From positions 260,276 through 324,275 of the forward strand of contig OX044367.1 in NCBI GenBank assembly GCA_943846785.1: DNA of 64,000 nucleotides, written 5' to 3'. This DNA is from an uncultured SAR86 cluster bacterium (lineage in GTDB: Bacteria; Pseudomonadota; Gammaproteobacteria; Magnimaribacterales; D2472). Below, piece after piece: positions 780-20,652 of the stretch (position 1 is the stretch's first letter; each line of letters starts with the position of its first letter). Below the pieces are notes generated by a model. It was not told where the DNA came from. It searched no databases and saw nothing but the letters and a program-made list of their open reading frames with translations. The translations under genes were made by a program, and so were the position numbers.

Positions 780-796
780 TTCGATAGCTCCTTTTT

Positions 797-2614: not shown

Positions 2615-2632
2615 GTTTATCTCCGATAATGA

Positions 2633-2995: not shown

Positions 2996-3060
2996 GACTT
3001 TTCCCCTTTAAATTTAATTATGTGATTACTCTAACCCGAATTTATAAATAGATAAATGTT

Positions 3061-4233: not shown

Positions 4234-4251
4234 TTTTAAATTTCTTGTTTT

Positions 4252-4925: not shown

Positions 4926-4929
4926 ACTT

Positions 4930-5223: not shown

Positions 5224-5247
5224 GAATTTATTTTGATCAAGCTTGAG

Positions 5248-5628
5248 TTAAACCCATTGATCATTTTTAGCCGTGTATTCATTTATAGTATCTCCAGTAT
5301 TCACAACTCCTTTAGGCTCTATGAGCATGATCTTTGCCTCATGCTTAGCAAATGGTTTGTGCCTTGTTCCTTTAGGAATAACTAGCATTTCACCTTCACT
5401 TAATTCGATGGTTTCATTCTCGAATTCTATTCCCATTGTTCCTTCTATAACAATAAAGGTTTCATCCGTTTCTGGATGGCTATGCCATGTAAAATTATCT
5501 TTTATTTTTGCAAGCTTAAACTGATAATCATTCATTTCTTCTATAACTTTTGGTGACCACTTATCAGAGAATTTTTTGAACTTAGATTTAAAATTAATTT
5601 TTTTCATACTATGTCTTATCTTGATCAA
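5248..5628 (-). CDS. cupin domain protein
   Basis: 126 aa. Cupin motif region WHSHPETDETFIVIEG...GEMLVIPKGTRHKP. Confidence 0.6.
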   Translation of the reverse strand: MIKIRHSMKKINFKSKFKKFSDKWSPKVIEEMNDYQFKLAKIKDNFTWHSHPETDETFIVIEGTMGIEFENETIELSEGEMLVIPKGTRHKPFAKHEAKIMLIEPKGVVNTGDTINEYTAKNDQWV

Positions 5629-5992
5629 GATTGACCGCTGCTAGCAACAGTAGGCCTGCAAATATTCCCATGTTTTTATAAAAGTTTTGGGTTTCATGTT
5701 TCGTATCTACGCCATCATATATGTTCCAAAAATCATGCAAGTTTAAGTTTATCAATAAGATCATTGCTGCAAACCCAATGGCGCAGACTACGACTTGCTT
5801 GTTAAGTAAAAGAAGGATGCTTCCACCCACTTGAGCAATGCCGGCAATGGCCAACAAAATAGGAATCATGACCATATTGTGGGTTTCCATTAATGCTATA
5901 TGCGTGTCCCATGAAGTAAATTTTGCTATGCCTGGTAGTAGAAAATAGATTGCGAGTAAAACTCTAGAAATATGAATTAATATAGATTTCAT
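5609..5992 (-). CDS. DoxX family membrane protein
   Basis: 127 aa with four hydrophobic helices. The N-terminal RVLLAIYFLLPGIAKF is typical of DoxX. Confidence 0.5.
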   Translation of the reverse strand: MKSILIHISRVLLAIYFLLPGIAKFTSWDTHIALMETHNMVMIPILLAIAGIAQVGGSILLLLNKQVVVCAIGFAAMILLINLNLHDFWNIYDGVDTKHETQNFYKNMGIFAGLLLLAAVNLDQDKT

Positions 5993-6019
5993 TATTACTC
6001 CCTTGCTAAATACTTAGCT

Positions 6020-6370
6020 TCATTTAAATTCATTCTTCCCATCGAAGTGCACTACCTTATAAATATCTGGTGGCTCATCTACACATCTGAGGTTAATACT
6101 ATAAGAGCCTGGATGAGATCGAGGCTGATAAAAACTTTTTGTTCCACATTTTTTGCAAAACAGATGCTTTGCTTTTTTAGTTCCAAAAGAATATTCAGAG
6201 ATTAAGTCTTTTCCATCTGTTATTTCAAAATCATCATGCTTGATAAAGAGATGTTCGTAACCATGTATTTTGCATATAGAGCAATTACATTCCCAAATTT
6301 CAACAGCCTGATCTGAGTTAAATTTAAATTTAACTTCCCCACAATGACATCTACCAACATACTCTTTCAT
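6020..6370 (-). CDS. GFA family protein (glutathione-dependent formaldehyde-activating enzyme / CENP-V fold)
   Basis: 116 aa. Zinc-cysteine pattern GRCHCGEVKF...CNCSICK...FCKKCG. Confidence 0.75.
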   Translation of the reverse strand: MKEYVGRCHCGEVKFKFNSDQAVEIWECNCSICKIHGYEHLFIKHDDFEITDGKDLISEYSFGTKKAKHLFCKKCGTKSFYQPRSHPGSYSINLRCVDEPPDIYKVVHFDGKNEFK

Positions 6371-6429
6371 AATTGAAGAATATCATGACTAAACTATAGT
6401 GCGATAGGAAATCCTAGCCAGTCTTTTGT

Positions 6430-8250
6430 CTACTCAAGAACAAAATCATAATATCCAAGATAAACATGAATGCTGCCATCATAGTTGTTGAATTCATTTC
6501 TCATTGTTTCTCCATAAACCACTATGTCTTCAATGCCGTCTCCATTTACATCTCTTGGAAATCCTTGTCCATGACCAGCATCCATAAGCAACTCATGCCC
6601 AGGCATTTCATATGATTGATTATTTTCATATTCAACCATTTGTCCTTCGGTATTATTTATGTTTATTATAGGAGTCCCTCCCCTTAGCCTTGGCGTTTCA
6701 TATCCATAGGATCTAGAAAATACGTTTCTTGAAAAATCTGTGTAGCCGTCATTGTTGAGATCTCTACAGTCTAGGAAATTCGCAAAAACTTGATTGTCAT
6801 AGATGTTAAATGGGCTTTCTATTTCAACTATTTTATTGTCTTGGATTTGAAAAACTTTAACCTCTTGGCTCGCATTAAAATTATTTTGATTGTATGTTTC
6901 TCCCTCTATTATTTCTCGACCTTCCTTATGAAAGCTTGTTGCAAATAAACCAAGAAAGGTCGTATTACCGGTATCATCAAATTTATCTTTAAAGAAACAC
7001 ATGGTCTCTGGAGTGTAGTCTATAGAGTACTTGCCATTTACTAAGTACACGGCAGTTGGCCCTTCTGATCCCTGCCAGGATATTTGATTTATAAAAAACT
7101 CTATCGATGTTAATTCTTGATCTACTTTGTTCCAGACATTATTTTCTCTAAACCACAAGGCTAGGCCTCTTTGGGAATAGTCCGTTGATTCATCTGTGGC
7201 AATAATATAGTTATCTTGGTATTTGAGCTCTGTGCTCCATGGAGCTGATCCTATATCAATAATATTAAGGCCGTCATCGCTCATTATGTTTTCTGTAGGA
7301 TATTCATCCTTAACGTCGAGCCATCCTTCTGGTGAATATCTATATGCTTGAAGTCCTATTCCAGTAAAGCCAGCAAATAGTGCATCCACATTTCCATTGT
7401 CATGCTCAACTATAGTTACTGCATGCCCCCAATCTGGGGTTCCAACTTTTACTATCTCATATTCTGTCTCGCCTTTAGATAATATAATTGCTGGGCTCGC
7501 TCTTGAGTATTCCCAAGGGTCTCCATTTCTTCCATCTTCCCAGTTCATAGCAAAAGCAAAATCGTCTCTTCCGTCTCCATTAAAATCACCTCTATCATAT
7601 TTTCTGCTTGCACCACCAAGGCTTGGGATATTTTCACCAAATACTTCTTGATTGCCCTCACGGTAGGTTCCATCACCATTAGAAAGATGCACAACGATTA
7701 AGTCTGGTGTTGGTTCTTGAATAACATCACCAAACTTATCTCTGTAAAGGTCACACCATTGATGCGCCATAAAGTCTTCCCAGCCATCATTATTAATATC
7801 TACAGGTATTACAAACTGAATAGATGGCTGAGCCTCTGAATAATCTGTATTACAAACCTGAGGGTAAAGATTTGAGTCGCTAATAATAATTGGCTCTTCT
7901 TTAAACTGGGATTTATATTCAGCTGTTACGGTGACGCTGCCCTCAGCAGAACCGCCATTTCCAGTGCATTTAATTTTAAATACTTGGCTGCCATCAACTG
8001 TAATGGTGAGAACCTCCTCACCGCTGATACCTTTAACTCCCTGCCAGCTTTCTGATGCCTCACATGCAGTCGAATTATTTGATGACCAAGAAATCGTAAC
8101 CTGCTCATCAACAAATAAGCTCATAGGGCTAGCTGAAATAGAAACTGTTGGTGCTGGAATAGGAGCTGGCTCAGGAGCGCTTCCGCCTCCTCCGCCACCA
8201 CAGGAAACAAGAATAAATATAGCTGGGATAACTGAATAAATTTTTAACAT
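6430..8250 (-). CDS. FG-GAP/VCBS-repeat surface lipoprotein
   Basis: 606 aa. Lipobox LVSC followed by GGGGGGSAPEPAPIPAP linker. Repeated Ca-binding DxNxDGxxD loops (DINNDGWEDF, DFNGDGRDDF, DLNNDGYTDF, DVNGDGIEDIV). Confidence 0.7.
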   Translation of the reverse strand: MLKIYSVIPAIFILVSCGGGGGGSAPEPAPIPAPTVSISASPMSLFVDEQVTISWSSNNSTACEASESWQGVKGISGEEVLTITVDGSQVFKIKCTGNGGSAEGSVTVTAEYKSQFKEEPIIISDSNLYPQVCNTDYSEAQPSIQFVIPVDINNDGWEDFMAHQWCDLYRDKFGDVIQEPTPDLIVVHLSNGDGTYREGNQEVFGENIPSLGGASRKYDRGDFNGDGRDDFAFAMNWEDGRNGDPWEYSRASPAIILSKGETEYEIVKVGTPDWGHAVTIVEHDNGNVDALFAGFTGIGLQAYRYSPEGWLDVKDEYPTENIMSDDGLNIIDIGSAPWSTELKYQDNYIIATDESTDYSQRGLALWFRENNVWNKVDQELTSIEFFINQISWQGSEGPTAVYLVNGKYSIDYTPETMCFFKDKFDDTGNTTFLGLFATSFHKEGREIIEGETYNQNNFNASQEVKVFQIQDNKIVEIESPFNIYDNQVFANFLDCRDLNNDGYTDFSRNVFSRSYGYETPRLRGGTPIININNTEGQMVEYENNQSYEMPGHELLMDAGHGQGFPRDVNGDGIEDIVVYGETMRNEFNNYDGSIHVYLGYYDFVLE

Positions 8251-8304
8251 TGTAAAAAAGTCTTGATGAATATATGTCTTAAATATTTATAATCTGCTAT
8301 TAAT

Positions 8305-9201
8305 TTATAATTTTATAAGCGCGTTGTGGGTAATCCTATCAGGGATATTTTCTGCTCCTGGCACCTTTCTGGCAATCAAGAATGGTTTAAGGACTTCAAT
8401 TGCTTTTGGTTCATCATAATGCCCAATGCCAGGATGAAGATGATGAATAAAATGAAGTTGCATTGAATGATTTAGATATCTTGGCATCCAGTGACTCCAA
8501 AACTTAGTGTCTTTATATCTACCAGTTTCCATCTGGTAGTGCGGATACCAACCAAAGAAAGCTGAAAGATAAATAACTCCAACCTTGCTTGGCAACCACC
8601 ATAACAGTAGCGCTTCAAGCGGAAAAACCACAGCAAGACTTAAAAGAATTGCTCTATATAGCAGCCCTATGTTCAGCCCTTTGTTAAAAGATTTCATAAA
8701 TGCTTTATCATTTTTATATATTTCAGCTAATGATTGATATTTAGTTATTCCTGCTTGAGTGGCTACAATAACGTCCCATATTGATTTAGAAGATGAGGTG
8801 TCATAGTCTGGATCTTTCTCAGGATTGTTGGTGTAAGCATGATGTTTCATATGCGTACATCTCATTAAATCATGAGGAAACATTAAGGTTACTAAAGTGT
8901 AGTGACTAACAAAAGAATCAATCCAACGCCTCTTTGGATTTCCTCTTGAAAAATTGCCGTGCTGAGCCTCATGTGAGGGTAAATAAGCAAAACACGCACA
9001 AACAATAGCAATTAGAGATCCATAAAATAAAGAAATATATCCATAAATAACTAATGGCCACAAAGAAAGCCATATAGTTGCCTGCCCAACGCCAATAAGC
9101 ATCATTTCCCATTGAAAGCGTTTAGAAAAACTTCTTGCTATCTCTTTCTCTTTTTCAAAAGAAAATTCTTCTGGGATTTGCTCTACGCCTTCCATAACCA
9201 A
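8305..9201 (-). CDS. membrane fatty-acid desaturase family protein
   Basis: 298 aa. Three histidine boxes HEAQHGN, HMKHHAYTN, HFIHHLHP. Substrate cannot be inferred. Confidence 0.7.
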   Translation of the reverse strand: MVMEGVEQIPEEFSFEKEKEIARSFSKRFQWEMMLIGVGQATIWLSLWPLVIYGYISLFYGSLIAIVCACFAYLPSHEAQHGNFSRGNPKRRWIDSFVSHYTLVTLMFPHDLMRCTHMKHHAYTNNPEKDPDYDTSSSKSIWDVIVATQAGITKYQSLAEIYKNDKAFMKSFNKGLNIGLLYRAILLSLAVVFPLEALLLWWLPSKVGVIYLSAFFGWYPHYQMETGRYKDTKFWSHWMPRYLNHSMQLHFIHHLHPGIGHYDEPKAIEVLKPFLIARKVPGAENIPDRITHNALIKL

Positions 9202-9383
9202 GTACCCCTAATTTTTGCTATAAGCCCTAAAGCCAAACCGCATAAATACCATATAAGTGAGCTGAGCATGACTTCGAATTGAATTGCAATTGCATTGAAA
9301 ACACTGCCCCAAAAAATTAACCCAAACCAAACCATATTCCAACTAGCTATATGGTTTGAAAGTAATTCATTCAATTTATTCAT
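9183..9383 (-). CDS. hypothetical small membrane protein
   Basis: 66 aa with two hydrophobic helices. Overlaps the desaturase start. Confidence 0.3.
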   Translation of the reverse strand: MNKLNELLSNHIASWNMVWFGLIFWGSVFNAIAIQFEVMLSSLIWYLCGLALGLIAKIRGTWLWKA

Positions 9384-9532
9384 AAAAATAGCGCCAATCT
9401 CATTTAAATATTATCTAATACTATATTAAGTTTGTACTATTTGTCACTCTTCAAATCTTCTCAGCCTTTGTGCGAAAACTATGGAAAGCATTAAGATGAG
9501 GGAGATTAATATTTCAAGGTATACTAAAAATT

Positions 9533-11050
9533 ATGCAAGAACGTCCAGACTATTCTAAGTTTATAGAACGCTTAAAAATGAGCGAAGATGAAACTAGGAT
9601 CGAATCAACTAAAAAACGTCATAGTAAAAAATATAGGACGGCGAGAGAAAATTTAAATCACTTGGTAGATGGGGATTCTTTTTTAGAGTTTGGTCAGTTT
9701 GCCGTGGCAGCACAACGAACACGAAGAGAAAAGGAAGATCTAATTCTCAACACAAATGCAGACGGAGTTATTACTGGGTTTTGCAAAATAAATTCTGATA
9801 TATCAAAAAAATTGAATGCTGATGCCGTGGCAATTGTTTATGATTATTCTGTTCTTGCTGGCACGCAAGGACTATTCCATCATCAAAAATTAGATCGCAT
9901 ATTTGAAAAGGCAAAGACATATAAATTACCAATTGTTATTTTTACTGAGGGTGGTGGAGGTAGGCCTGGGGATGTTGATGTTCTTACACAGATTGCAGGC
10001 ATGCATATCCCAAGCTTTGCTAGGTGGGCCTCGCTCCATAAAGAGTGTTTGAGAATAGCTATTACAAATGGATACTGCTTCGCTGGAAATGCTGCTCTTT
10101 TTGGAGCTAGTGATATAAGAATTGCAACTAAAGGGTCGAATATAGGAATGGCAGGACCCGCAATGATAGAGGGTGGTGGTCTTGGTAAATTCTCACCCGA
10201 TGATATTGGCGCTGTTGAGGATCATTTGTTAAATGGGGTCGTAGATGTTCTTGTTGAAAATGAAGAGCAGGCTACAAACATTGCAAAAAAAATACTTTCT
10301 TATTTCCAAGGCTCAATTGATAAGTTTGATGTCTCAGATCAGGAGCTTCTTAAAAATATTCTTCCTGATGACAGAAGGTTTAGTTATGAAATTAGAGACA
10401 TTATCGAGATAGTCGCTGATTTAGATTCATTTATAGAATTAAAAAAAGGTTATGGGAGAAGCTTAGTCACCGGACTTATTAGAGTTGAAGGGATTGCTTT
10501 TGGTTTATTAGCATCAGACTGTAAGTTCTTGGGTGGTGCTATTGATTCTGATTCTGCAGACAAAGCAGCAGAATTCTTTGAGCTCTGTAATGACCAAGGC
10601 TTGCCCATGGTTTCTATAGTGGATACTCCTGGTTTTATGGTTGGTCCTGATAGTGAAAAAGAAGGCGCTCCAAGAAGAATGGGCAAGTTATTTAAATCAA
10701 GCTCAACCTTTAAAAACAATCTTGTTTCTATTTTTCTTCGAAAAGGGTATGGCCTTGGGGCTCAAGCAATTGTTGGCGGCAGCTTACATAAGTCTACTTA
10801 TACGTGTGCTTGGCCATCGGGCGAGTTTGGAGGAATGGGTCTTGAGGGAGCGGTTAGGCTTGGTTACAAAAAAGAGCTTGAAGCCATATCGGACCCAAAA
10901 GAAAAAGAAATTCTTTATAACAAGCTAGTTGATAAAATGTATGAAGCAGGACAGGCGATGGAAGCTGCATCATTTTTAGAAATAGATGCTGTAATAAATC
11001 CCTCTAAAACACGAGAAACAATTATCAAAGCTCAGCATTCACTAAAATAA
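9533..11050 (+). CDS. acyl-CoA carboxylase carboxyltransferase subunit (fused N/C carboxyltransferase domains)
   Basis: 505 aa. Carboxyl-transferase blocks VAIVYDYSVLAGTQG, FTEGGGGRPGD, IVDTPGFMVGP, AWPSGEFGGMGLEGAV. Confidence 0.8.
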   Translation: MQERPDYSKFIERLKMSEDETRIESTKKRHSKKYRTARENLNHLVDGDSFLEFGQFAVAAQRTRREKEDLILNTNADGVITGFCKINSDISKKLNADAVAIVYDYSVLAGTQGLFHHQKLDRIFEKAKTYKLPIVIFTEGGGGRPGDVDVLTQIAGMHIPSFARWASLHKECLRIAITNGYCFAGNAALFGASDIRIATKGSNIGMAGPAMIEGGGLGKFSPDDIGAVEDHLLNGVVDVLVENEEQATNIAKKILSYFQGSIDKFDVSDQELLKNILPDDRRFSYEIRDIIEIVADLDSFIELKKGYGRSLVTGLIRVEGIAFGLLASDCKFLGGAIDSDSADKAAEFFELCNDQGLPMVSIVDTPGFMVGPDSEKEGAPRRMGKLFKSSSTFKNNLVSIFLRKGYGLGAQAIVGGSLHKSTYTCAWPSGEFGGMGLEGAVRLGYKKELEAISDPKEKEILYNKLVDKMYEAGQAMEAASFLEIDAVINPSKTRETIIKAQHSLK

Positions 11051-11302
11051 TGAATATAGTTAGTTAAGCTCTCCTTTTATTTTTTAATTGGGTTTCTCTC
11101 TATTTTTTGATCATATAAGAAAATTTTTTATTGTTTGAAATGAAGTTAATATCATTAAAAATGAACTTGCCAATAATTGTGCCAAATATGAGAAAACCAA
11201 GTCTATTCAGAATGTGGGATTAAAATGAAAGTCGTTATAAACTTACTCCGCTGTAACAGAGTTCTCGAAGTAAGGTTTGGGTTTTCCACTATTTGTGCAT
11301 GG

Positions 11303-12106
11303 CTAACGATCATTGGTTGCTCTGCTGATTCGACTAAGTCCTTTCTTGCGCCGATAGATAGCTATTTTTCTCGAAGCATCAATGGATTGCGAAATTCTCT
11401 GCCAAAAAGGTTTTTTCTCCGGATACCAACTGTTAGATTTATCCGGTAAAACGCCGTCCAGAACAACTTCCCAATCCGGCGATGATTCGTATCCACAACC
11501 GACGAGATCTGGTGTCATTGTGCCGTGGATTGCCTGCTGTTGAACGATGCGACCGAGATGTTTTCGCCAGACACCGACACTGGTCGTTCCAATGGGACGG
11601 ACGCCACGCATTGCAACCTTTGACTTTTCAGACACTTGCGCGTGTTCATGGTACTCAGAAAATTTGTGTTGTTTCTCAAGCCATGGAAATTTTGCAGTGA
11701 TTTGGTTTTGTGTGGCGTCAGGGTTATTTACGAAATCCTCGTACCGGATATTGAGAAAACGATCGTGGCCGAACAATGAGCGTGCACAGGCATGCAATTC
11801 ACGCCAAAGCCTAATGTTCGAGTAGTACATATCCTCGCTCTTACCGTGCCGGCTAACGATGACATCACGCGGATCGCGCGTTACGTAAATGACATAGAGA
11901 TTAGGATCGTCGATGACTCCTGGCATGTACAACGTATCTTTGGGTCGTTTCGTGATAACCACATCGTTGTTTTTTGCGGTTACGAGGTGAAAGCGAATCT
12001 CATGGTCATAATGCTTGTTTGTCCGAAAACAAGTGGCCATCGCCTCGTGCAAGAGAGTAGTACCGGATCGCGGCGAGCAGGCAACAATGTGAATGTGCTT
12101 AAACAG
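11303..12106 (-). CDS. PAPS-dependent sulfotransferase family protein (copy 1)
   Basis: Contains the 5'-PSB loop PRSGTT and the 3'-PB motif RDPRDVIVS. The ORF-track start (TTG 12052) lies downstream of PRSGTT. The frame is open back to 12109. CTG 12106..12104 sits 7 nt after AAGGAG (12119..12114) and would give MFKHIHIVACSPRSGTTLLHEAM. Confidence 0.7.
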   Translation of the reverse strand: MFKHIHIVACSPRSGTTLLHEAMATCFRTNKHYDHEIRFHLVTAKNNDVVITKRPKDTLYMPGVIDDPNLYVIYVTRDPRDVIVSRHGKSEDMYYSNIRLWRELHACARSLFGHDRFLNIRYEDFVNNPDATQNQITAKFPWLEKQHKFSEYHEHAQVSEKSKVAMRGVRPIGTTSVGVWRKHLGRIVQQQAIHGTMTPDLVGCGYESSPDWEVVLDGVLPDKSNSWYPEKKPFWQRISQSIDASRKIAIYRRKKGLSRISRATNDR

Positions 12107-12117
12107 ACGTCAACTCC

Positions 12118-12843
12118 TTAATTAGCCATTGCCGCTTCGTTATAGGCAGATATTAGTATTTGCCAATCGGCCAGTTGCCAATAAATATTATGTAATCGTT
12201 TTTCTTTCTCAAATGATCGCTTTAAACGCGCTATGTTTGAGTTTTTCCAATTACTGCCTTGTCTAATTTGGCATTTATCAAAATCAATTAACCAAACCTC
12301 GTTTTCTATATCGAGCATAATGTTGTGGATATTTAAATCGTGGAGATAAATCTGATGATGATGAAATTTGGCAATGGTTTGACCAATTTTTTTCCAAACA
12401 TCAGCGGTTAAGCTGTTTGCTAGTAAAATATGATGTAAGTCCCTAGCGCTGGAAATTTTTTTTAAAATGATATCGGCTTGGTAATATAAGCCAGTCTTCT
12501 TCAACATCGCTGCGATCGGGGTTGGACAATTTAAATCCATATTTTTCATTTGCTGTAGCAGCTTAAATTCTCGCCATGCTCGTGATTTTTCAATACCTGT
12601 GTACATATATTGATCACTTAGTACTTTTCCAATCAATCCGCCACGACGATAGTGCCGTAACACATATTCATTTTTGTTATGTTTAAAAAAGTAGGTGGTA
12701 CCACGGCCGGTTGCCTGTCCTGTTATGGCATTTTGTGTCTTCCAATATTGACCCGTAAACATTTTTGGGACAGGTACAGGGAAATGGCCTGAATCAAACA
12801 ACATGATGTGGGACTTAACTGATTTTTGTTTTATGTATGCCAT
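12118..12843 (-). CDS. kdkA: 3-deoxy-D-manno-octulosonic acid (Kdo) kinase (copy 1)
   Basis: 241 aa. Kdo/LPS kinase family blocks GRGTTYFF, YVLRHYRRGGLIGK, catalytic loop HDLNIHNIML, WLIDFDK. The ATG lies 4 nt after the upstream stop. Confidence 0.8.
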   Translation of the reverse strand: MAYIKQKSVKSHIMLFDSGHFPVPVPKMFTGQYWKTQNAITGQATGRGTTYFFKHNKNEYVLRHYRRGGLIGKVLSDQYMYTGIEKSRAWREFKLLQQMKNMDLNCPTPIAAMLKKTGLYYQADIILKKISSARDLHHILLANSLTADVWKKIGQTIAKFHHHQIYLHDLNIHNIMLDIENEVWLIDFDKCQIRQGSNWKNSNIARLKRSFEKEKRLHNIYWQLADWQILISAYNEAAMAN

Positions 12844-12847
12844 GTAA

Positions 12848-13771
12848 CTATTTTTGGCTTAAACGGATATTACTACGCACTTTAGACAATTGAGAATTTT
12901 CTTTATAACGTCCTTTTGTAACATGATGAATATGAAAAACACCATCAATATGCTTAGGCTCACCATCAGTGCCAAGTAGCCAGCGAAAGGCGGTGTCTTC
13001 ATAGGTTTTACGCCAACGGTCAGATTCAGTTTGAAATATTGACAGTTTTTCACAATAACCTATAGCACGAGCAACGTCACCATGAACAATTTGAAATGGG
13101 CCGCGTGCTTTATCACGGGATTTGCCACGCTCGTATAAACTGAAATTTTCTGTTTCTATATCGATAACTTGTGGTTGGGCATCATTTGACAATAATGGGT
13201 CATCATCTTCTAACATCTCAGTGATTTTTTCTTCTTTAGGAAAAAACAATGAACCTTTCTCGCCTTGTAAACTATCGGCGAGTGAGTCTAAGCAGTTCTC
13301 ATAAAAGATAATGTCGCAATCTGTAAACCATATCCAGTCAGCTTCTGTTGACCGCGCAGCCATATTTCGGCCTATACCACGTCTAAAGAGCTTTCCTTTG
13401 GTAAGAGGGTGGAAATTCCAAGTTATATTTGGCGTGGTTATTTGACTAAAGAAGTCCAATGTAGCCTTTGTTTTAGTATCTTCTTTAGCATAAAAAACGG
13501 TCACAGTTAAATTTAGTTTCGTTGGTGGATAGTTTACAAACGAACTTAATTGATAGGTTAACATGTTGGCATAACCCCAGCAGTGACTAACAATTTCTAA
13601 ATCAAACTTTCCCTTTACTGCCTTGCGATCTGCTTCAGCAGGTATTTTATCGCGAAACAATGACTGCGGTAAAATACGACCAAACACTAAACGATAAGCT
13701 TGTATAGCAAAGCTATTAAAGACATTTGGTGAAAATGTTTTTGTTTCTATCATGATAAATAAGTAAGCCAA
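12848..13771 (-). CDS. GT-A fold (family 2-like) glycosyltransferase (copy 1)
   Basis: 307 aa from TTG 13771, or 301 aa from ATG 13753. GT2 hallmark GRNMAARSTEADWIWFTDCDIIF with a DxD-like DCD. First strand is LEIVSHCW. Confidence 0.6.
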   Translation of the reverse strand: MAYLFIMIETKTFSPNVFNSFAIQAYRLVFGRILPQSLFRDKIPAEADRKAVKGKFDLEIVSHCWGYANMLTYQLSSFVNYPPTKLNLTVTVFYAKEDTKTKATLDFFSQITTPNITWNFHPLTKGKLFRRGIGRNMAARSTEADWIWFTDCDIIFYENCLDSLADSLQGEKGSLFFPKEEKITEMLEDDDPLLSNDAQPQVIDIETENFSLYERGKSRDKARGPFQIVHGDVARAIGYCEKLSIFQTESDRWRKTYEDTAFRWLLGTDGEPKHIDGVFHIHHVTKGRYKENSQLSKVRSNIRLSQK

Positions 13772-13920
13772 CTCATTTCTTAAAAAACTTTTTTATGCTT
13801 TCTAACAAAATTTACTCGACAGTACACGACTGAGTTCAACAGGGGGGGTTCTTTACCTTCGCTGTTAGGGTTACTACAAATCGACTTCATTTTCACTACC
13901 GTAATGATATCCCGTTTATA

Positions 13921-13946
13921 AAAAAAGAGGTATCCCCTCTTTTTAT
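13921..13946 (-). terminator. rho-independent terminator-like hairpin, potentially bidirectional
   Basis: AAAAGAGG-tatcc-CCTCTTTT with an A-tract on one side and a T-tract on the other. It lies 77 nt downstream of the unit-2 sulfotransferase stop. Confidence 0.5.
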
Positions 13947-13978
13947 TGAATACTTTTAATAATTATTAATTTATGAAG

Positions 13979-14017
13979 CAACCTCAGAATGCGGGATTAA
14001 AGCGAAAGTTGAGGTTG
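13979..14017. other. terminal inverted-repeat hairpin of the cassette (CAACCTCA-N23-TGAGGTTG)
   Basis: Perfect 8-bp arms at 13979..13986 and 14010..14017. The right arm ends exactly at the unit 1 / unit 2 junction. Confidence 0.6.
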
Positions 14018-14022
14018 CATGG

Positions 14023-14826
14023 CTAACGATCATTGGTTGCTCTGCTGATTCGACTAAGTCCTTTCTTGCGCCGATAGATAGCTATTTTTCTCGAAGCATC
14101 AATGGATTGCGAAATTCTCTGCCAAAAAGGTTTTTTCTCCGGATACCAACTGTTAGATTTATCCGGTAAAACGCCGTCCAGAACAACTTCCCAATCCGGC
14201 GATGATTCGTATCCACAACCGACGAGATCTGGTGTCATTGTGCCGTGGATTGCCTGCTGTTGAACGATGCGACCGAGATGTTTTCGCCAGACACCGACAC
14301 TGGTCGTTCCAATGGGACGGACGCCACGCATTGCAACCTTTGACTTTTCAGACACTTGCGCGTGTTCATGGTACTCAGAAAATTTGTGTTGTTTCTCAAG
14401 CCATGGAAATTTTGCAGTGATTTGGTTTTGTGTGGCGTCAGGGTTATTTACGAAATCCTCGTACCGGATATTGAGAAAACGATCGTGGCCGAACAATGAG
14501 CGTGCACAGGCATGCAATTCACGCCAAAGCCTAATGTTCGAGTAGTACATATCCTCGCTCTTACCGTGCCGGCTAACGATGACATCACGCGGATCGCGCG
14601 TTACGTAAATGACATAGAGATTAGGATCGTCGATGACTCCTGGCATGTACAACGTATCTTTGGGTCGTTTCGTGATAACCACATCGTTGTTTTTTGCGGT
14701 TACGAGGTGAAAGCGAATCTCATGGTCATAATGCTTGTTTGTCCGAAAACAAGTGGCCATCGCCTCGTGCAAGAGAGTAGTACCGGATCGCGGCGAGCAG
14801 GCAACAATGTGAATGTGCTTAAACAG
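14023..14826 (-). CDS. PAPS-dependent sulfotransferase family protein (copy 2)
   Basis: Identical to copy 1. CTG 14826..14824 follows AAGGAG 14839..14834. Confidence 0.7.
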   Translation of the reverse strand: MFKHIHIVACSPRSGTTLLHEAMATCFRTNKHYDHEIRFHLVTAKNNDVVITKRPKDTLYMPGVIDDPNLYVIYVTRDPRDVIVSRHGKSEDMYYSNIRLWRELHACARSLFGHDRFLNIRYEDFVNNPDATQNQITAKFPWLEKQHKFSEYHEHAQVSEKSKVAMRGVRPIGTTSVGVWRKHLGRIVQQQAIHGTMTPDLVGCGYESSPDWEVVLDGVLPDKSNSWYPEKKPFWQRISQSIDASRKIAIYRRKKGLSRISRATNDR

Positions 14827-14837
14827 ACGTCAACTCC

Positions 14838-15563
14838 TTAATTAGCCATTGCCGCTTCGTTATAGGCAGATATTAGTATTTGCCAATCGGCCAGTTGCCA
14901 ATAAATATTATGTAATCGTTTTTCTTTCTCAAATGATCGCTTTAAACGCGCTATGTTTGAGTTTTTCCAATTACTGCCTTGTCTAATTTGGCATTTATCA
15001 AAATCAATTAACCAAACCTCGTTTTCTATATCGAGCATAATGTTGTGGATATTTAAATCGTGGAGATAAATCTGATGATGATGAAATTTGGCAATGGTTT
15101 GACCAATTTTTTTCCAAACATCAGCGGTTAAGCTGTTTGCTAGTAAAATATGATGTAAGTCCCTAGCGCTGGAAATTTTTTTTAAAATGATATCGGCTTG
15201 GTAATATAAGCCAGTCTTCTTCAACATCGCTGCGATCGGGGTTGGACAATTTAAATCCATATTTTTCATTTGCTGTAGCAGCTTAAATTCTCGCCATGCT
15301 CGTGATTTTTCAATACCTGTGTACATATATTGATCACTTAGTACTTTTCCAATCAATCCGCCACGACGATAGTGCCGTAACACATATTCATTTTTGTTAT
15401 GTTTAAAAAAGTAGGTGGTACCACGGCCGGTTGCCTGTCCTGTTATGGCATTTTGTGTCTTCCAATATTGACCCGTAAACATTTTTGGGACAGGTACAGG
15501 GAAATGGCCTGAATCAAACAACATGATGTGGGACTTAACTGATTTTTGTTTTATGTATGCCAT
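14838..15563 (-). CDS. kdkA: Kdo kinase (copy 2)
   Basis: Protein identical to 12118..12843. Confidence 0.8.
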   Translation of the reverse strand: MAYIKQKSVKSHIMLFDSGHFPVPVPKMFTGQYWKTQNAITGQATGRGTTYFFKHNKNEYVLRHYRRGGLIGKVLSDQYMYTGIEKSRAWREFKLLQQMKNMDLNCPTPIAAMLKKTGLYYQADIILKKISSARDLHHILLANSLTADVWKKIGQTIAKFHHHQIYLHDLNIHNIMLDIENEVWLIDFDKCQIRQGSNWKNSNIARLKRSFEKEKRLHNIYWQLADWQILISAYNEAAMAN

Positions 15564-15567
15564 GTAA

Positions 15568-16491
15568 CTATTTTTGGCTTAAACGGATATTACTACGCAC
15601 TTTAGACAATTGAGAATTTTCTTTATAACGTCCTTTTGTAACATGATGAATATGAAAAACACCATCAATATGCTTAGGCTCACCATCAGTGCCAAGTAGC
15701 CAGCGAAAGGCGGTGTCTTCATAGGTTTTACGCCAACGGTCAGATTCAGTTTGAAATATTGACAGTTTTTCACAATAACCTATAGCACGAGCAACGTCAC
15801 CATGAACAATTTGAAATGGGCCGCGTGCTTTATCACGGGATTTGCCACGCTCGTATAAACTGAAATTTTCTGTTTCTATATCGATAACTTGTGGTTGGGC
15901 ATCATTTGACAATAATGGGTCATCATCTTCTAACATCTCAGTGATTTTTTCTTCTTTAGGAAAAAACAATGAACCTTTCTCGCCTTGTAAACTATCGGCG
16001 AGTGAGTCTAAGCAGTTCTCATAAAAGATAATGTCGCAATCTGTAAACCATATCCAGTCAGCTTCTGTTGACCGCGCAGCCATATTTCGGCCTATACCAC
16101 GTCTAAAGAGCTTTCCTTTGGTAAGAGGGTGGAAATTCCAAGTTATATTTGGCGTGGTTATTTGACTAAAGAAGTCCAATGTAGCCTTTGTTTTAGTATC
16201 TTCTTTAGCATAAAAAACGGTCACAGTTAAATTTAGTTTCGTTGGTGGATAGTTTACAAACGAACTTAATTGATAGGTTAACATGTTGGCATAACCCCAG
16301 CAGTGACTAACAATTTCTAAATCAAACTTTCCCTTTACTGCCTTGCGATCTGCTTCAGCAGGTATTTTATCGCGAAACAATGACTGCGGTAAAATACGAC
16401 CAAACACTAAACGATAAGCTTGTATAGCAAAGCTATTAAAGACATTTGGTGAAAATGTTTTTGTTTCTATCATGATAAATAAGTAAGCCAA
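15568..16491 (-). CDS. GT-A fold (family 2-like) glycosyltransferase (copy 2)
   Basis: Protein identical to 12848..13771. Confidence 0.6.
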   Translation of the reverse strand: MAYLFIMIETKTFSPNVFNSFAIQAYRLVFGRILPQSLFRDKIPAEADRKAVKGKFDLEIVSHCWGYANMLTYQLSSFVNYPPTKLNLTVTVFYAKEDTKTKATLDFFSQITTPNITWNFHPLTKGKLFRRGIGRNMAARSTEADWIWFTDCDIIFYENCLDSLADSLQGEKGSLFFPKEEKITEMLEDDDPLLSNDAQPQVIDIETENFSLYERGKSRDKARGPFQIVHGDVARAIGYCEKLSIFQTESDRWRKTYEDTAFRWLLGTDGEPKHIDGVFHIHHVTKGRYKENSQLSKVRSNIRLSQK

Positions 16492-16640
16492 CTCATTTCT
16501 TAAAAAACTTTTTTATGCTTTCTAACAAAATTTACTCGACAGTACACGACTGAGTTCAACAGGGGGGGTTCTTTACCTTCGCTGTTAGGGTTACTACAAA
16601 TCGACTTCATTTTCACTACCGTAATGATATCTCGTTTATA

Positions 16641-16666
16641 AAAAAAGAGGTATCCCCTCTTTTTAT
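16641..16666 (-). terminator. rho-independent terminator-like hairpin (copy 2)
   Basis: Same sequence as 13921..13946. Here it lies downstream of the host MAPEG gene. Confidence 0.5.
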
Positions 16667-16698
16667 TGAATACTTTTAATAATTATTAATTTATGAAG

Positions 16699-16737
16699 CA
16701 ACCTCAGAATGCGGGATTAAAGCGAAAGTTGAGGTTG
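16699..16737. other. terminal inverted-repeat hairpin of the cassette (copy 2, forms the right end of the insert)
   Basis: CAACCTCA-N23-TGAGGTTG. Identity with the host-free repeat stops at 16737. Confidence 0.6.
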
Positions 16738-16842
16738 ACTTATTCCACTGTGACTGACTGGTTTTGAACAGAGAATTAGATTTCTTTCCCTGAAACCCTT
16801 TATGGAAACTCTGATAAAACTTTATATATTTTTCTTCCATAC

Positions 16843-17241
16843 TTATAAAAGTAGCATAATCGACGTCCTGATGAGACCCAAGAAACCAACAAAAGTTAGT
16901 GCCATACCACCAATTCTTAAAAACATATTTGGTTTCAAAAAAGAAAAAACTATTCCGTGCATCAATCTCCCGACCGTAAATGCTATTCCAGAGAAATAAA
17001 GTTGAGTTTGAGGTGCCCCTGATAATTCAAGAATAAACATTAAAATTAAGAATAGTGGAGCATATTCGACTAGATTTCCGTGCCCTCTGATGGACCTTTG
17101 AAGAGTTTTGTCATCAACAATCCTATTGGGTTTGTGAAGAAATTTTGTGACGGGACTTCCTCTGAGGTCGAGAACTCTAAAAGATAGAATTATCATAAAT
17201 GATGAAAGTATCGTGGCAAATATTAGAGTAATTTCTGGCAT
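16843..17241 (-). CDS. MAPEG family membrane protein (microsomal glutathione S-transferase-like)
   Basis: 132 aa with four helices. MAPEG motif RSIRGHGNLVEYAPLFL. Confidence 0.65.
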   Translation of the reverse strand: MPEITLIFATILSSFMIILSFRVLDLRGSPVTKFLHKPNRIVDDKTLQRSIRGHGNLVEYAPLFLILMFILELSGAPQTQLYFSGIAFTVGRLMHGIVFSFLKPNMFLRIGGMALTFVGFLGLIRTSIMLLL

Positions 17242-17304
17242 GTTTATAAATTTATAATTCTCTGTTTTGTTCTACTCCACCGTAACAGAGTATCCATAAC
17301 CAAA

Positions 17305-18462
17305 TTATTGTTGTTTGTAATTTTGGTCATGAAGATCCATTATATTTTCAGCGATTGTATGTAAGTCAGTATTAAAACCTGTGTCGGCGTCATTGGTTCT
17401 TAAGTTAACCCCATATAACCCATTCAACCATATTAGCGCTCCTGTGTTAACAACAATTTTACCTTGATGTCCCTTTGTATCTCTAAATATTGAATCATCA
17501 TAGGAACCAAATAAGGAAATATCATCAAGCAATAAATTATTTTCATACTGATCAACCAAATCAAATGTTGCCCACCCGGTTGGAAGAGTAAATATTTCTG
17601 TTGAAGGGTATATTTCGCGCAACTGATCAATGACAGCCTTATGCGAGAGATCGCTAACCAAATACCCATATAAATCTCTTATATTGTTATACCCATAATC
17701 TTCTGCTACTTGCTGCCAGTCTGCTGGAAAATCTATGGGTGGAATGTGTACAAATATTTTTATGTTGGGGTTATTTTGCAAAGCATAATCTATCCATTCT
17801 GTAAAACCTGATAAAGGGTTATTTTCATTTAAATACCAAGTCATCCCAAGAATGTCGATGTTCCCAGAATCTAGAATTTGTTTAATTTCTGTGTTTGTGT
17901 CTTCTTTTGTCCATAATCCAATTGGTGTGCCGTAAACGCCGCCTCTCATAACGATAGTATCTCTGTGTTCTAAAAAGTCTGCATCTAGTGCTAACTCGCT
18001 GAATCTTTCAGCGTAAGGTCTAAAGAAACTATTACCCATGAGTAACATATTTGATCCACCCATGCCCTCAAGAACATCGTTAATGGAAATTATTATTCCA
18101 AGCGATGAGGATAATGAACCATCTGATGCAATTATGGTTACTTCATAAATATTATCTTGATTACTGTCTTGTGGATTTTCATAGTCTGGTGGCGAAATAA
18201 AAGATAGTTCTCCAGACAAGCTCCCTATTGTCATTAATGCTGAGTCAGAACCTTCAATGGAATAGGTTATATTGTCCCCCTCGGCATCTGTTGCTTGAAT
18301 AGTAGTTACCTGAGTGGTGTTTTCATCAATTGCAAAATCAATTAAACCTACAAGTTGAGGTGCTGTATTTACTTGTTCGGGTGTCTCACTATTGCTTCCC
18401 CCGCCGCCACATCCTACAAGAGCGGTTACTAGAATAATTAGATATCTATAGTTTTGTTCCAT
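17305..18462 (-). CDS. lipoprotein with an N-terminal cadherin-like domain and a C-terminal uncharacterised (possibly SGNH-like) domain
   Basis: 385 aa. Lipobox LVGC followed by GGGGSNSE. Cadherin-like segment IDENTTQVTTIQATDAEGDNITYSIEG...YEVTIIASDG. Confidence 0.6.
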   Translation of the reverse strand: MEQNYRYLIILVTALVGCGGGGSNSETPEQVNTAPQLVGLIDFAIDENTTQVTTIQATDAEGDNITYSIEGSDSALMTIGSLSGELSFISPPDYENPQDSNQDNIYEVTIIASDGSLSSSLGIIISINDVLEGMGGSNMLLMGNSFFRPYAERFSELALDADFLEHRDTIVMRGGVYGTPIGLWTKEDTNTEIKQILDSGNIDILGMTWYLNENNPLSGFTEWIDYALQNNPNIKIFVHIPPIDFPADWQQVAEDYGYNNIRDLYGYLVSDLSHKAVIDQLREIYPSTEIFTLPTGWATFDLVDQYENNLLLDDISLFGSYDDSIFRDTKGHQGKIVVNTGALIWLNGLYGVNLRTNDADTGFNTDLHTIAENIMDLHDQNYKQQ

Positions 18463-18559
18463 ATGTATTTTTATAAGTAAGTTACGTATTAAATATAGAT
18501 TGAGAATTGCTTTCCAATAGTCAGTATTGGTAACTTTATTAAGATATCACATGATTTTC

Positions 18560-18614
18560 ATATTTTTATGAGGGTAAGTTGGAAAAGATTCTTTTTCAGA
18601 TTGGTCTTGATCAA
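18560..18614. repeat. 55-bp direct repeat, copy A
   Basis: atatttttatgagggtaagttggaaaagattctttttcagattgGtcttgatcaa. Matches 18755..18809 at 54 of 55 positions. Confidence 0.85.
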
Positions 18615-18754
18615 TTGCATATTGTGTTATCTTATCGTTTGCTTCAGGAATACCTGAAGTCATTGTCAATCTCATTCTTCTTTGCTGAGAATAACCTGAC
18701 TCACTTACATGAATCGTCTCATTGATTGGTGTTTTTATTATGTATAAGATTTAT

Positions 18755-18809
18755 ATATTTTTATGAGGGTAAGTTGGAAAAGATTCTTTTTCAGATTGAT
18801 CTTGATCAA
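18755..18809. repeat. 55-bp direct repeat, copy B (begins 15 nt beyond the glmS stop codon)
   Basis: Same sequence as copy A, with A at 18799 instead of G at 18604. Period is 195 nt. Confidence 0.85.
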
Positions 18810-18824
18810 CCGAGAAACCTTTCC

Positions 18825-20652
18825 TTATTCCACCGTAACTGACTTTGCTAGATTCCTTGGTTGATCAATATCTGTTCCTCTTAGTAAGGCGACTTCATAT
18901 GAAAGAATCTGTAGAGGAATGTTATATACAATAGGAGTTAAGAAGAAATCACATTTTGGCATATGAACAAGCTCACCAGCCTTAACATCCATTTTTACCG
19001 ATGGATCAGCAAAAACATATAGCGTGCCACCTCTTGCTTTTACTTCCTCAAGATTAGAAATTAATTTTTCAGCTATTTCGCTTTCAGGTGCCAATGCAAT
19101 AACTGGCATATTCTCATCAATAAGAGCCAGTGGTCCATGCTTTAACTCGCCTGCTGGGTATGCCTCTGCATGAATATAAGAAATCTCTTTTAAGTTTTAA
19201 GGCGCCCTCTTTTGCAATTGGATAAAAAATTCCTCTGCCTAAGAAAAGAGCATTGTCCTTGTTTGCAATACTTGGCGCTATTGCTGCGATTTGTTCTTTT
19301 TGCAGCAGTGATTCTGAAATTGTTTCTGGTAATAATCTTAGTGCATTAACAATTCTGCCTCTTAATTTGGGATTTAAGTCTTTGCTTTTGGCTAAAGAAA
19401 GAGCAAGCAACATAAGAGCAGCTAGCTGAGTGGTGAACGCTTTGGTTGAGGCAACTCCAATTTCTGGGCCAGCATTAGTAAAAAGCACAAAGTCAGACTC
19501 TCTTGCTAGTGAACTTGTTGGAACATTACAAATAGCTAGAGAAGCCAAATAATTCTTTTCTTTTGCGTAGCTCAGCGCTGCCAATGTGTCTGCAGTCTCT
19601 CCAGATTGAGAAATGGTTATGATTAATGAATCATCATCTACATGAGGGTTTCTATATCTGTATTCACTAGCGTAATCTATTTGACATGGGAGTTCAGCTA
19701 TAGATGAAAACCAATTTGCTGCTACTCTTCCAGCATGAAGGCTAGTTCCACAAGCAACAATTTGTATTCGTTTAACTTTTGCAAAAATATCGCTAGAACC
19801 TAATCCAAAAATATTATCTAAGACATCTTCTCCACCTATTCTTCCATCGATAGTATTGGATACTGCTTCAGGTTGTTCATAGATTTCTTTTTCCATAAAG
19901 TGTCTATAGTCACCTTTTGAGGTTGCTTGGTTTGAAATATCTATATGGGTTACTTCTCTGGTAACTTCTTTTTTAGAGCTATCAAAAATTTTATAAGAGT
20001 TCGCTGATATTTCTGCAACATCTCCATCTTCTAGAAAGATAAAATCGTTTGTCATTTGTGCTATAGCTAAAGGGTCAGAGGCGGCAAATATTTCATCCGT
20101 GCCAAGGCCAATTAACAAAGGCGACTTGTTTCTTGCTACAACTAAATTAGTATTATCTTTAATGTCTATAGCAGCTATTGCATAAGCTCCTTCAAGTTTT
20201 TCTTTTGCTAAATACATTGCATCGAGCATGCTGTTACCTTCATTCATATGCAGATCAAGTAAATGCGCTATAAGCTCTGAGTCGGTTTGGGATGAAAACT
20301 CATAGCCGTCGCTCATTAGGGATTCTCGCAAGTCCACATAGTTTTCAATAATGCCGTTATGAACGATATATACAGAGTCTTTTGATTTATGTGGGTGGGC
20401 ATTTATCTCTGAAGGCTCTCCATGAGTTGCCCATCTTGTATGCGCAATGCCGAGCTTACTCTTTGGCTTTTCAGCAATCATTTTATCTTCGAGAAGCTGA
20501 ACTTTACCTAATGCACGCAAGTGAGCAATTGATTCATTTTGATGCAAGGCGATTCCTGCTGAGTCATAGCCTCTATATTCCATTTTATGGAGCCCTTGAA
20601 CTAGTAATTTACCAACGTTTCTTGTTGATGCTGCAGCAATGATTCCGCACAT
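18825..20652 (-). pseudogene. glmS: glutamine--fructose-6-phosphate aminotransferase, frame broken by one extra base
   Basis: ORFs 19117..20652 (MCGIIAAAST...) and 18825..19109 (...[11 protein letters not shown]) are two frames of one GlmS. Removing one T from the run 19188..19191 restores ...[40 protein letters not shown]. Confidence 0.85.

Follow-up and report, generated by a model that had tools for sequence, protein, structure and literature searches.

A candidate envelope-glycan operon of glycosyltransferase, Kdo kinase and sulfotransferase genes on a mobile cassette downstream of glmS in SAR86 bacteria

What might a glycosyltransferase (GT), a Kdo (3-deoxy-D-manno-octulosonic acid) kinase, KdkA, and a sulfotransferase (ST) make together when their genes lie end to end in a marine bacterium, and how did they come to be neighbours? 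The question is raised by positions 11303-13771 of a 64,000-nucleotide (nt) stretch of DNA, hereafter the window, on contig OX044367.1. A scan of species-representative genomes placed the window, which has a G+C content of 35.6%, in the SAR86 cluster (Magnimaribacterales). These bacteria, among the most abundant in the surface ocean, account for a few percent of its bacteria and have been cultured only recently. A reading of the letters alone, hereafter the sequence-only reading, had proposed that the three genes form a portable module for decoration of the inner core of lipopolysaccharide (LPS), possibly with sulfate. Here we show that GT, kdkA and ST form a real, tightly packed operon of SAR86, presumably co-transcribed. 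We give about even weight to the reading that the block is a cytoplasmic envelope-glycan operon, carried on a mobile cassette in a flexible island downstream of glmS, with a putative role in the LPS core.

The three genes are co-directional on the minus strand and are present twice in the window, the coordinates given above being those of one of the two copies. The features of the block are as follows.

12848-13753, minus strand: GT, copy 1; an open reading frame (ORF) of 301 amino acids (aa), GT-A fold, with the invariant DxD motif T144-D145-C146-D147
12118-12843, minus strand: kdkA, copy 1; 241 aa, predicted Kdo kinase, NCBIfam NF002475 equivalog
11303-12106, minus strand: ST, copy 1, of the type that uses 3'-phosphoadenosine-5'-phosphosulfate (PAPS); 267 aa, putative CTG start at 12104-12106
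12104-12120, minus strand: kdkA/ST junction, TAA-GGAGTTGACGT-CTG, in which the kdkA stop overlaps the Shine-Dalgarno sequence and the non-canonical CTG start follows
11296-14015, no strand: tandem repeat unit 1 (2720 nt), with ST, kdkA, GT and 262 nt upstream of GT
14016-16735, no strand: tandem repeat unit 2, with ST at 14023-14826, kdkA at 14838-15563 and GT at 15568-16473

The tight packing claimed for these genes was borne out. The GT stop codon (12848-12850) is followed after 4 nt by the kdkA ATG (12843), the kdkA stop (TAA, 12118-12120) opens the sequence TAAGGAG and hence overlaps the Shine-Dalgarno sequence of ST, and the spacer between kdkA and ST is 11 nt. The same GT-kdkA-ST order was found again in 8 GTDB species representatives and 17 metagenome contigs, and thus is not a chance juxtaposition. 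Of the 22 SAR86 species representatives, 8 have ST after kdkA, as do 17 of the approximately 45 metagenome contigs in which KdkA is at least 90% identical; at least 13 of these contigs extend more than 1 kb downstream of kdkA and are without ST. The ratio of nonsynonymous to synonymous substitution rates (dN/dS) of GT, kdkA and ST was 0.06-0.6, mostly 0.1-0.35, and these low values indicate purifying selection on all three genes. Profile scores, motifs and structure comparison showed that the three enzyme classes had been correctly assigned. The sequence-only reading knew of no described arrangement of a sulfotransferase co-transcribed with kdkA, and our literature search yielded no paper linking a sulfotransferase with a Kdo kinase.

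The window KdkA matched the NCBIfam equivalog NF002475 with 297 bits (cut-off 142) over residues 5-237 of 241, as well as the Pfam family Kdo (PF06293) with E = 1.3e-48. Its translation contains the catalytic-loop motif HxDxxxxN, within YLHDLNIHNIM, and the metal-binding DFD, within WLIDFDKC. The nearest named relatives are KdkA proteins of Paraglaciecola, with 60-71% identity. Judged by its sequence, the protein is a predicted Kdo kinase, with phosphorylation of Kdo at O-4 on Kdo-lipid IVA as the family activity.

GT begins at the ATG at 13753, where its homologues, 297-301 aa long, also begin; a TTG start at 13771 was an artefact of ORF listing, ruled out by the lengths and starts of the homologues. 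The match of GT to Pfam Glycos_transf_2 (PF00535) is partial (residues 100-172) and, with 22.5 bits, below the gathering cut-off of 23.3, while some GT homologues have a precomputed PF00535 match. The AlphaFold2 model of GT (pLDDT 84, pTM 0.87) retrieved K4CP, SpsA, TarP and AvpGT in Foldseek with E = 1e-8 to 1e-6, and K4CP, SpsA and TarP are all GT2/GT-A enzymes. The modelled fold is clearly GT-A, and the TDCD (DxD) motif is invariant in the GT alignment. A PDB sequence search with GT gave no solved-structure relatives.

ST matched Pfam Sulfotransfer_3 (PF13469) with 42.4 bits (cut-off 27) and Sulfotransfer_1 (PF00685) with 30.9 bits (cut-off 22). Both cofactor motifs, the 5'-phosphosulfate-binding loop PRSGTT and the 3'-phosphate motif RDPRDVIVS, are invariant in 17 ST homologues (P12, R13, G15, T16 and T17; R77, D78, P79, R80, D81 and S85), and they align with those of the solved 4gox, retinol dehydratase and SULT2A1. 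The structural model of ST, built on a shallow alignment of 17 sequences, has a pLDDT of 56 and was used, at this low confidence, for fold class only. All 49 Foldseek matches with E <= 0.001 were PAPS sulfotransferases or fold relatives, a result that is supportive only, given the poor model, and the top-ranked among them were tyrosylprotein sulfotransferases. When ST was searched against PDB sequences, both by itself and in profile form, it gave weak matches to sulfotransferases only.

The protein had been described as one of 266 aa. Its PAPS-binding residues are present, but the frame as drawn begins at TTT, and we corrected it to 267 aa from a CTG codon. No ATG, GTG or TTG lies upstream of the PRSGTT loop. 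There is an in-frame TGA at 12110-12112, and the first plausible start after it is the CTG at 12104-12106, 7 nt past GGAG. In distant ST homologues this very codon is ATG or GTG, database relatives begin with MFKH, and the CTG with its Shine-Dalgarno sequence is common to the SAR86 relatives of ST, even to a lineage only 83% identical. From this sequence conservation, translation of ST most probably starts at the CTG. Since this start is non-canonical, gene callers shorten ST to 236-249 aa, with loss of the cofactor loop. The conserved CTG is preceded by GGAGTTGACG in the window (12104-12106 and 14824-14826) and in the related loci L005-L008 and L014-L039; the exceptions in SAR86 are L030 with ATG, L037 with ATA, and five species that gained an ATG via a 16-nt deletion. 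The reading frame of ST was intact in all of the approximately 60 SAR86 copies examined.

In most SAR86 loci, a 232-aa gene, ST2, overlaps the ST stop codon. Its N-terminal sequence is KKFIFVKTRKTSGTS, and it has a weak Sulfotransfer_2 match as well as a P-loop-like KTRKTSGTS motif. ST2 is absent from the window, which lost it by a deletion between CCAYGCA repeats that left the breakpoint at 11296; it is found at L027:6794-7492, L034:6794-7492 and L005:2391-3026. A homology of SAR86 ST2 with the Sulfotransfer_4 neighbour of ST in Woeseiaceae was considered and rejected, as there was no significant similarity.

GT and kdkA form a conserved pair, and often they overlap; of the SAR86 contigs whose KdkA is at least 90% identical, nearly all have the two genes next to each other. 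The pair occurs in the glmS island, beside malate synthase (L034) and in a queA-tgt-secDF region (L009). The spacer between the two genes is 0, 4, 7, 56, 100, 199 or 322 nt in SAR86. These variants are nested and share their ends (L112:4799-5003, L117:2929-3034, L118:3258-3585 and L133:1004-1065), which suggests serial insertions or deletions of AT-rich segments within the operon.

How the block travels is indicated by its surroundings. On one side of the cassette is a carboxyltransferase gene (plus strand, 9533-11050), and on the other is glmS-glmU-atp, which is on the minus strand and starts at about 18822. Downstream of glmS, the island consists of small cassettes in an array, with copies of the final 15 nt of glmS as their boundaries. 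This core, GTN ACN GTN GAR TAR, encodes V-T-V-E-stop, and all copies are on the glmS strand. The features of the island in the window, from glmS onwards, are as follows.

18825-18839, minus strand: true glmS 3' end (codons V-T-V-E-stop; glmS domains), template of the core and anchor of the island
17305-18462, minus strand: cadherin-domain lipoprotein cassette (Pfam)
17272-17286, minus strand: glmS-end core between the cadherin-like lipoprotein and MAPEG cassettes
16843-17241, minus strand: MAPEG protein cassette (Pfam), with terminal inverted repeats, score 12
16740-16754, minus strand: glmS-end core between the MAPEG and GT-kdkA-ST cassettes; the duplicated unit begins 2 nt after it
13812-13826, minus strand: degenerate glmS-end core TGTACTGTCGAGTAA, 5' boundary of the GT-kdkA-ST cassette, with a second copy at 16532-16546
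11243-11257, minus strand: glmS-end core GTTACAGCGGAGTAA, 3' boundary of the cassette and end of the island

The canonical core GTTACTGTCGAGTAA occupies the place of the degenerate 13812-13826 core in L020, and the homology of the window with L020 and L022 stops at 13824, within this boundary core. Across 22 SAR86 loci and the window, the degenerate core pattern matched 75 times on the glmS strand and not once on the other. The 75 matches comprise 16 true glmS ends and 59 extra copies, with L020-L039 and L075 among the loci. Within the window, 4 matches were found as compared to 0.9 expected, all of them in the island. Since the search pattern is itself degenerate at wobble positions, the apparent variation at those positions is partly built in, and we discounted it as independent evidence. 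Terminal inverted repeats lie beside the cores in 19 of 58 cassettes, as compared to about 5% of random pairings (for example, TTTAAACAGTGATTT ... AAATCACTGTTTAAA); arms that flank the same core do not pair, and cassette sizes range from 0.2 to 3.4 kb.

The content of the array varies between close relatives. L014 and L015, 99-100% identical to the window, have one cassette copy; in L018, an identical carboxyltransferase gene is followed directly by glmS, without the cassette, and L019 has other genes at this place. The MAPEG and cadherin-lipoprotein cassettes likewise differ in their presence among L014, L015, L018 and L019. The non-coding stretch between glmS and the lipoprotein gene contains 62-nt direct repeats (18553-18614 and 18748-18809), which are 95% identical and 195 nt apart.

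No recombinase or integrase was present among the ORFs of the window island (lipoprotein, MAPEG, GT, KdkA and ST) or among the annotated neighbours in L027 and L034, and an Rfam search of 10900-19200 gave no match at E <= 1. We considered several known vehicles and rejected them. An integron or CALIN, whose attC sites have R''/R' core sites (RYYYAAC / GTTRRRY), does not fit, as there is no intI integrase and what is conserved here is the 15-nt glmS end in the centre; the Rfam search was negative, no attC-specific model having been applied. An attC-like hairpin with the core in its loop was set aside similarly, the inverted repeats being located instead at the two ends of a cassette. The island holds no tyrosine recombinase of a tycheposon or other integrase-borne element, and neither tnsABC(D) genes nor Tn7 ends, its position downstream of glmS being the only likeness to a Tn7-like element. 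A phage vector was rejected as well: neither the 2720-nt unit (blastn) nor the ST protein (tblastn) had a match in 50,697 phage records. Site-specific integration into the 3' end of glmS would produce just such a layout, and we infer the recombination mechanism from it.

The sequence-only reading had called the module portable, and this claim held up well, both in the array of cassettes that varies between strains and in the divergence of its genes between species. For ST, the window and other SAR86 species differ by a synonymous divergence (dS) of 0.006-0.11, with nucleotide identity of 96.5-99.6%, and GT and kdkA are 93-100% identical between the same species. On the same contigs, glmS has a nucleotide identity of 64-84% and a dS from 1.3 to more than 3, or not computable. 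Cassette genes with 97-99% nucleotide identity beside a synonymously saturated glmS indicate recent transfer between species; read from these sequences, the pattern requires that the cassette moved recently between SAR86 species. Short contigs with the SAR86 cassette at 97-99% identity (L023, L029 and L040) are filed in Phycisphaerae, Marinimicrobia and Alphaproteobacteria metagenome-assembled genomes (MAGs), which is probably mis-binning of a mobile, high-coverage segment.

The second copy of the cassette in the window bears on the proposal of dosage amplification. Two copies are indeed present, but in a single contig only, and the near-identical siblings L014 and L015 have one. Units 1 and 2 are identical at an offset of 2720 nt but for one mismatch (13912/16632). 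The repeat junction reads ...GAGGT|TG|CATGGC, with 2-nt microhomology (junction sequence GAAAGTTGAGGTTGCATGGCTAACG), and lies 2 nt past one core, with another core 38 nt further on. We rejected the glmS-end cores as mediators of the duplication, since their spacing predicts a unit of 2777 nt and not 2720. An artefact, in which a long-read metagenome assembler stacked two co-existing haplotypes, and a real duplication are about equally likely. For stacking speak the single copy in L014 and L015 and the absence of the junction from all of about 180 related loci. The sole difference between the copies (C at 13912, T at 16632) is also a pair of population alleles, T in L014, L015 and L017 and C in L016 and L020, and the left edge of the duplication, 11296, is the very point at which haplotypes diverge by presence or absence of ST2. 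Many core genes of the window, though not the three cassette genes, are frameshifted, as is typical of an unpolished long-read assembly, and L016, which comes from the same study, has a repetition of another kind that is more obviously composite. For a real duplication speaks the clean junction, with microhomology as in duplications by illegitimate recombination; each copy also retains its own upstream region, so that both would be expressed, and comparable island elements are documented to duplicate their cargo cassettes under selection (tycheposon preprint).

Two observations belong beside this comparison. Between 18822 and 25632 of the window, glmS, glmU, atpD, atpG and atpA are each split into at least two ORFs as compared to sibling contigs (glmS is 511 aa as compared to 609 aa in the siblings, and glmU is split as 190 + 304 aa); such split core genes point to indel errors. 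In L016 (contig_22682, ERZ10646505), positions 1-14396, the cassette is present twice, about 8986 nt apart, and the first copy has ST2 and is without the carboxyltransferase gene; either the arrangement is composite, or two haplotypes were joined into a chimera during assembly.

What, then, would the operon make? In the reading that we favour, KdkA would phosphorylate the Kdo of nascent lipid A-Kdo, the GT-A glycosyltransferase would add a sugar to the inner core, and ST, together with ST2 where present, would sulfate this sugar or a neighbouring one and so alter the pattern of negative charge of the core. The modified core would then be flipped across the membrane to its outer face. The sequence-only reading had added that a changed charge pattern might affect phage receptors and the binding of antimicrobial peptides. 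A gene for a late acyltransferase of lipid A (LpxL/LpxM family, lpxL-like) at 44285-45145 indicates that the host makes lipid A and LPS. The LPS inner core as acceptor, and the transfer of sulfate itself, are suggested by gene context. The chief rival to the LPS-core reading is that the ST-GT pair (with ST2) makes or decorates another product, such as a capsule, exopolysaccharide, O-antigen-like glycan, sulfated glycolipid or small glycoside, and that kdkA is a mere neighbour, brought there by cassette insertion in the glmS array and by fusion through streamlining deletions. We regard this rival, with both of its claims taken together, as possible but rather doubtful.

Several observations bear on an LPS-core role, some for it and some against. 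Against it, NCBIfam names neither the GT nor the ST family, and neither has a close characterised homologue, nor any that ties it to LPS. Members of the ST family, with about 60-74% identity, occur widely in Woeseiaceae and other Gammaproteobacteria. In 23 of 58 non-SAR86 loci, among them loci of Woeseiaceae, other Gammaproteobacteria, an Aliikangiella and a Burkholderiaceae MAG, ST directly adjoins a gene of the same GT family, 47-59% identical to the GT of the window. The order there is mostly ST then GT, and twice GT then ST. A true kdkA neighbour of ST was found in none of the 58 loci; the sole KdkA-like match, in a Burkholderiaceae MAG, has 32% identity and lies on the opposite strand about 1.6 kb away. 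Also against an LPS-core role, there are no recognisable waa clusters around the non-SAR86 ST-GT pairs. A second, unrelated sulfotransferase (Sulfotransfer_4) lies near ST-GT in 17 loci, and is seen in Woeseiaceae, in one lineage of which an OafA-like acyltransferase also accompanies the pair. The setting of the GT family in Colwellia and Glaciecola speaks for an envelope-glycan operon: there it stands beside wzi, a GT4 gene, UDP-GlcNAc 2-epimerase and UDP-sugar dehydrogenase. So does that of kdkA in Paraglaciecola, a classical waaA-GT4-kdkA-wzi-coaD locus; in an uncultured Paraglaciecola MAG the GT family gene stands alone. For the rival speaks that wzi, the neighbour of the GT family in Colwellia, is a capsule-assembly gene, and that marine Gammaproteobacteria are known to have sulfated capsules with sulfotransferases dedicated to them (PMC11766843). 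Within SAR86, 13 of the 22 species representatives have ST without GT or kdkA within 6 kb, and most representatives have ST-ST2 without kdkA. The conserved partner of ST across bacteria is GT, not kdkA, and the description of GT-kdkA-ST as one coupled module holds to the extent that it recurs in SAR86, but not outside SAR86, where ST pairs with GT without kdkA. A consensus promoter and terminator scan gave counts not above shuffled expectation, and hence no evidence of operon boundaries. On a Paraglaciecola-labelled contig (L100:10001-10906), next to mutT-secA-lpxC-ftsZ, a protein is 82% identical to the SAR86 GT; this is far closer than expected between orders and could reflect inter-order transfer or mislabelling.

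The junction between kdkA and ST speaks to both readings. In SAR86, the kdkA/ST spacer has at least five forms (125, 115, 78, 11 and -1 nt), the window having the 11-nt form. The long forms (78-125 nt) keep a glmS-end boundary element, GTTACAGTCGAATGA, immediately before the Shine-Dalgarno sequence of ST; in the 11-nt form this element is lost, and in the -1 form a further 16-nt deletion gave an ATG that overlaps the kdkA stop (GCTAATGTTTAA). This series of variants indicates that the ST-ST2 cassette was separate and then fused stepwise to GT-kdkA: [GT-kdkA] and [ST(-ST2)] would at first have been separate cassettes side by side, and stepwise deletions would have removed the boundary repeat between them, fusing both into one operon. 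The adjacency of kdkA and ST thus began as array packing, with ST as a separate cassette that had its own boundary repeat, and it could be an accident of such packing followed by streamlining deletions. Against a mere accident, GT, the universal partner of ST, belongs to the neighbouring fused unit, and the kdkA/ST spacer was tightened twice and its short forms then kept in many species. GT and kdkA, moreover, are a conserved and often overlapping pair in at least two genomic contexts, a pairing that ties GT to Kdo chemistry in SAR86, and none of wza/wzc, wzx/wzy or kps was present in the window island or beside ST-GT in the other loci examined.

The supply of the sulfate donor weighs against sulfation of any product. 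SAR86 was reported to be without sulfate uptake and assimilatory reduction (PMC3358033), and a later survey found 'no support for sulfate incorporation' save for a permease in one family (PMC11582366). The supplement of the 2024 SAR86 paper showed nothing for cysC, cysN, cysD or sat beyond a sulfate permease row. Neither waaA nor PAPS-pathway genes were present in the window, and regular expressions for APS-kinase and ATP-sulfurylase motifs, run in six frames on the window and on loci from SAR86 and elsewhere (1.18 Mb), matched once by chance and revealed no genes. In Cobetia, by contrast, cysNC, cysD and cysQ lie beside the sulfotransferase of the sulfated-capsule cluster (PMC11766843). With no sulfate assimilation reported for SAR86, the PAPS donor is unaccounted for; either a PAPS source was overlooked, or another donor is used, or ST is inactive. 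A further explanation, which we consider distinctly improbable, is that SAR86 makes no PAPS and ST cannot sulfate anything there: the gene would be a hitch-hiking or decaying passenger of a mobile cassette, or its product would use another donor or perform another reaction on the PAPS-sulfotransferase fold. It would account for the reports on sulfate and the motif search just described, for the weak CTG start of ST and for dN/dS values of up to 0.5-0.6 in some very close pairs, and the fold family does have a non-sulfating member, retinol dehydratase. An inactive ST, however, fits poorly with frames intact in every copy, dN/dS mostly at 0.1-0.35, invariant PAPS-binding motifs and improvements of the start codon: the CTG has a conserved Shine-Dalgarno sequence, and several lineages have ATG instead, once by the deletion that couples ST to kdkA. 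ST2, a second sulfotransferase-like gene, travels with ST, and the published SAR86 surveys covered sulfur assimilation, not stand-alone APS kinase or PAPS synthase.

The boldest form of the LPS-core reading joins all of its parts: SAR86 would sulfate its LPS inner core via a GT and ST module coupled to the Kdo kinase, would draw on a PAPS or other sulfate donor that has been missed, and would spread the module by an undescribed cassette system based on the 15-nt glmS end with a recombinase acting in trans. We consider the whole of this unlikely. If true, sulfate would add to or replace the negative charge of phosphate, possibly as a phosphorus-sparing or phage-evasion trait.

Some of what the locus contains is of kinds already known, namely flexible islands that carry LPS and glycan genes, marine polysaccharide loci that include sulfotransferases, and additive islands with repeats of their anchor gene. 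Our literature search found no paper in which both SAR86 and a sulfotransferase are mentioned, nor one that brings up a sulfotransferase along with LPS and Kdo kinase. New are the combination of kdkA with the conserved ST-GT pair and the uncharacterised ST-GT family pair itself, which is widespread in sediment and marine Gammaproteobacteria, Woeseiaceae included. The wiring of a GT-ST pair to a Kdo kinase gives a testable prediction of a sulfated SAR86 LPS core. The PAPS paradox is also new: the predicted activity of ST contradicts the accepted view of SAR86 as not handling sulfate. Similarly new is an anchor that donates its repeats but is glmS rather than a tRNA gene, in an array where inverted repeats bound very small cassettes and no recombinase is linked. 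The array of glmS-end repeats suggests how streamlined genomes without plasmids or prophages exchange surface-modifying genes, and near-identical cassettes beside a saturated glmS show cleanly that genes have recently passed between distant SAR86 species.

Comparison with known mobile systems shows where the island stands. With Tn7 at attTn7, it shares the position right after the glmS stop codon; it differs in having no tnsABCD-like genes or Tn7 ends, and its glmS end is reiterated, unlike in a Tn7 insertion. Additive islands and tycheposon arrays are alike in their cassettes stacked beside a conserved anchor, in direct repeats of the 3' end of that anchor, and in content that varies by strain and is shared between species. 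The additive island of Ca. Methylopumilus is marked by the recurring last 20 bp of a tRNA-Lys gene (PMC10872708), and the tycheposon islands of Prochlorococcus carry partial tRNAs (tycheposon preprint). In the SAR86 island, in contrast, the anchor is the protein-coding glmS (its last four codons and stop) and not a tRNA gene, and the cassettes are very small, many with terminal inverted repeats, with no integrase or replication module seen.

As for the cargo, the KdkA-containing waa loci of the Haemophilus/Vibrio type and of Paraglaciecola resemble the cassette in having an equivalog-level KdkA beside a core-type glycosyltransferase. The SAR86 block differs in that there are no adjacent waaA, coaD or heptosyltransferase genes, the partner GT belongs to a distinct, unnamed GT-A family, a sulfotransferase follows, and the whole is a mobile cassette and not a fixed waa locus. 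The capsule clusters of Cobetia marina KMM 1449 and Vibrio sp. KMM 8419 likewise combine glycosyltransferases and a sulfotransferase in one locus of a marine gammaproteobacterium. They are large, at about 70 genes, and include kps genes for export as well as a cysNC-cysD-cysQ-sulfate permease set of their own, whereas the SAR86 cassette has three to four genes, without export or PAPS genes.

Rhizobial glycan sulfotransferases include LpsS, which acts on Sinorhizobium meliloti LPS, NodH, which acts on Nod factor, and KpsS of the Mesorhizobium capsule, and their hosts make PAPS. Compared by description only, they resemble the predicted SAR86 enzyme in PAPS dependence, in envelope or secreted-glycan targets and in the change of surface charge, and to our knowledge none of them is linked to kdkA. 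The nearest solved structures are those of the tyrosylprotein sulfotransferases TPST1/2, which share the PRSGTT 5'-phosphosulfate-binding motif and gave the best Foldseek matches. Their identity to ST is only 15-19%, from a low-confidence model, nothing speaks for a protein as the substrate of ST, and its conserved GT partner points instead to a glycan.

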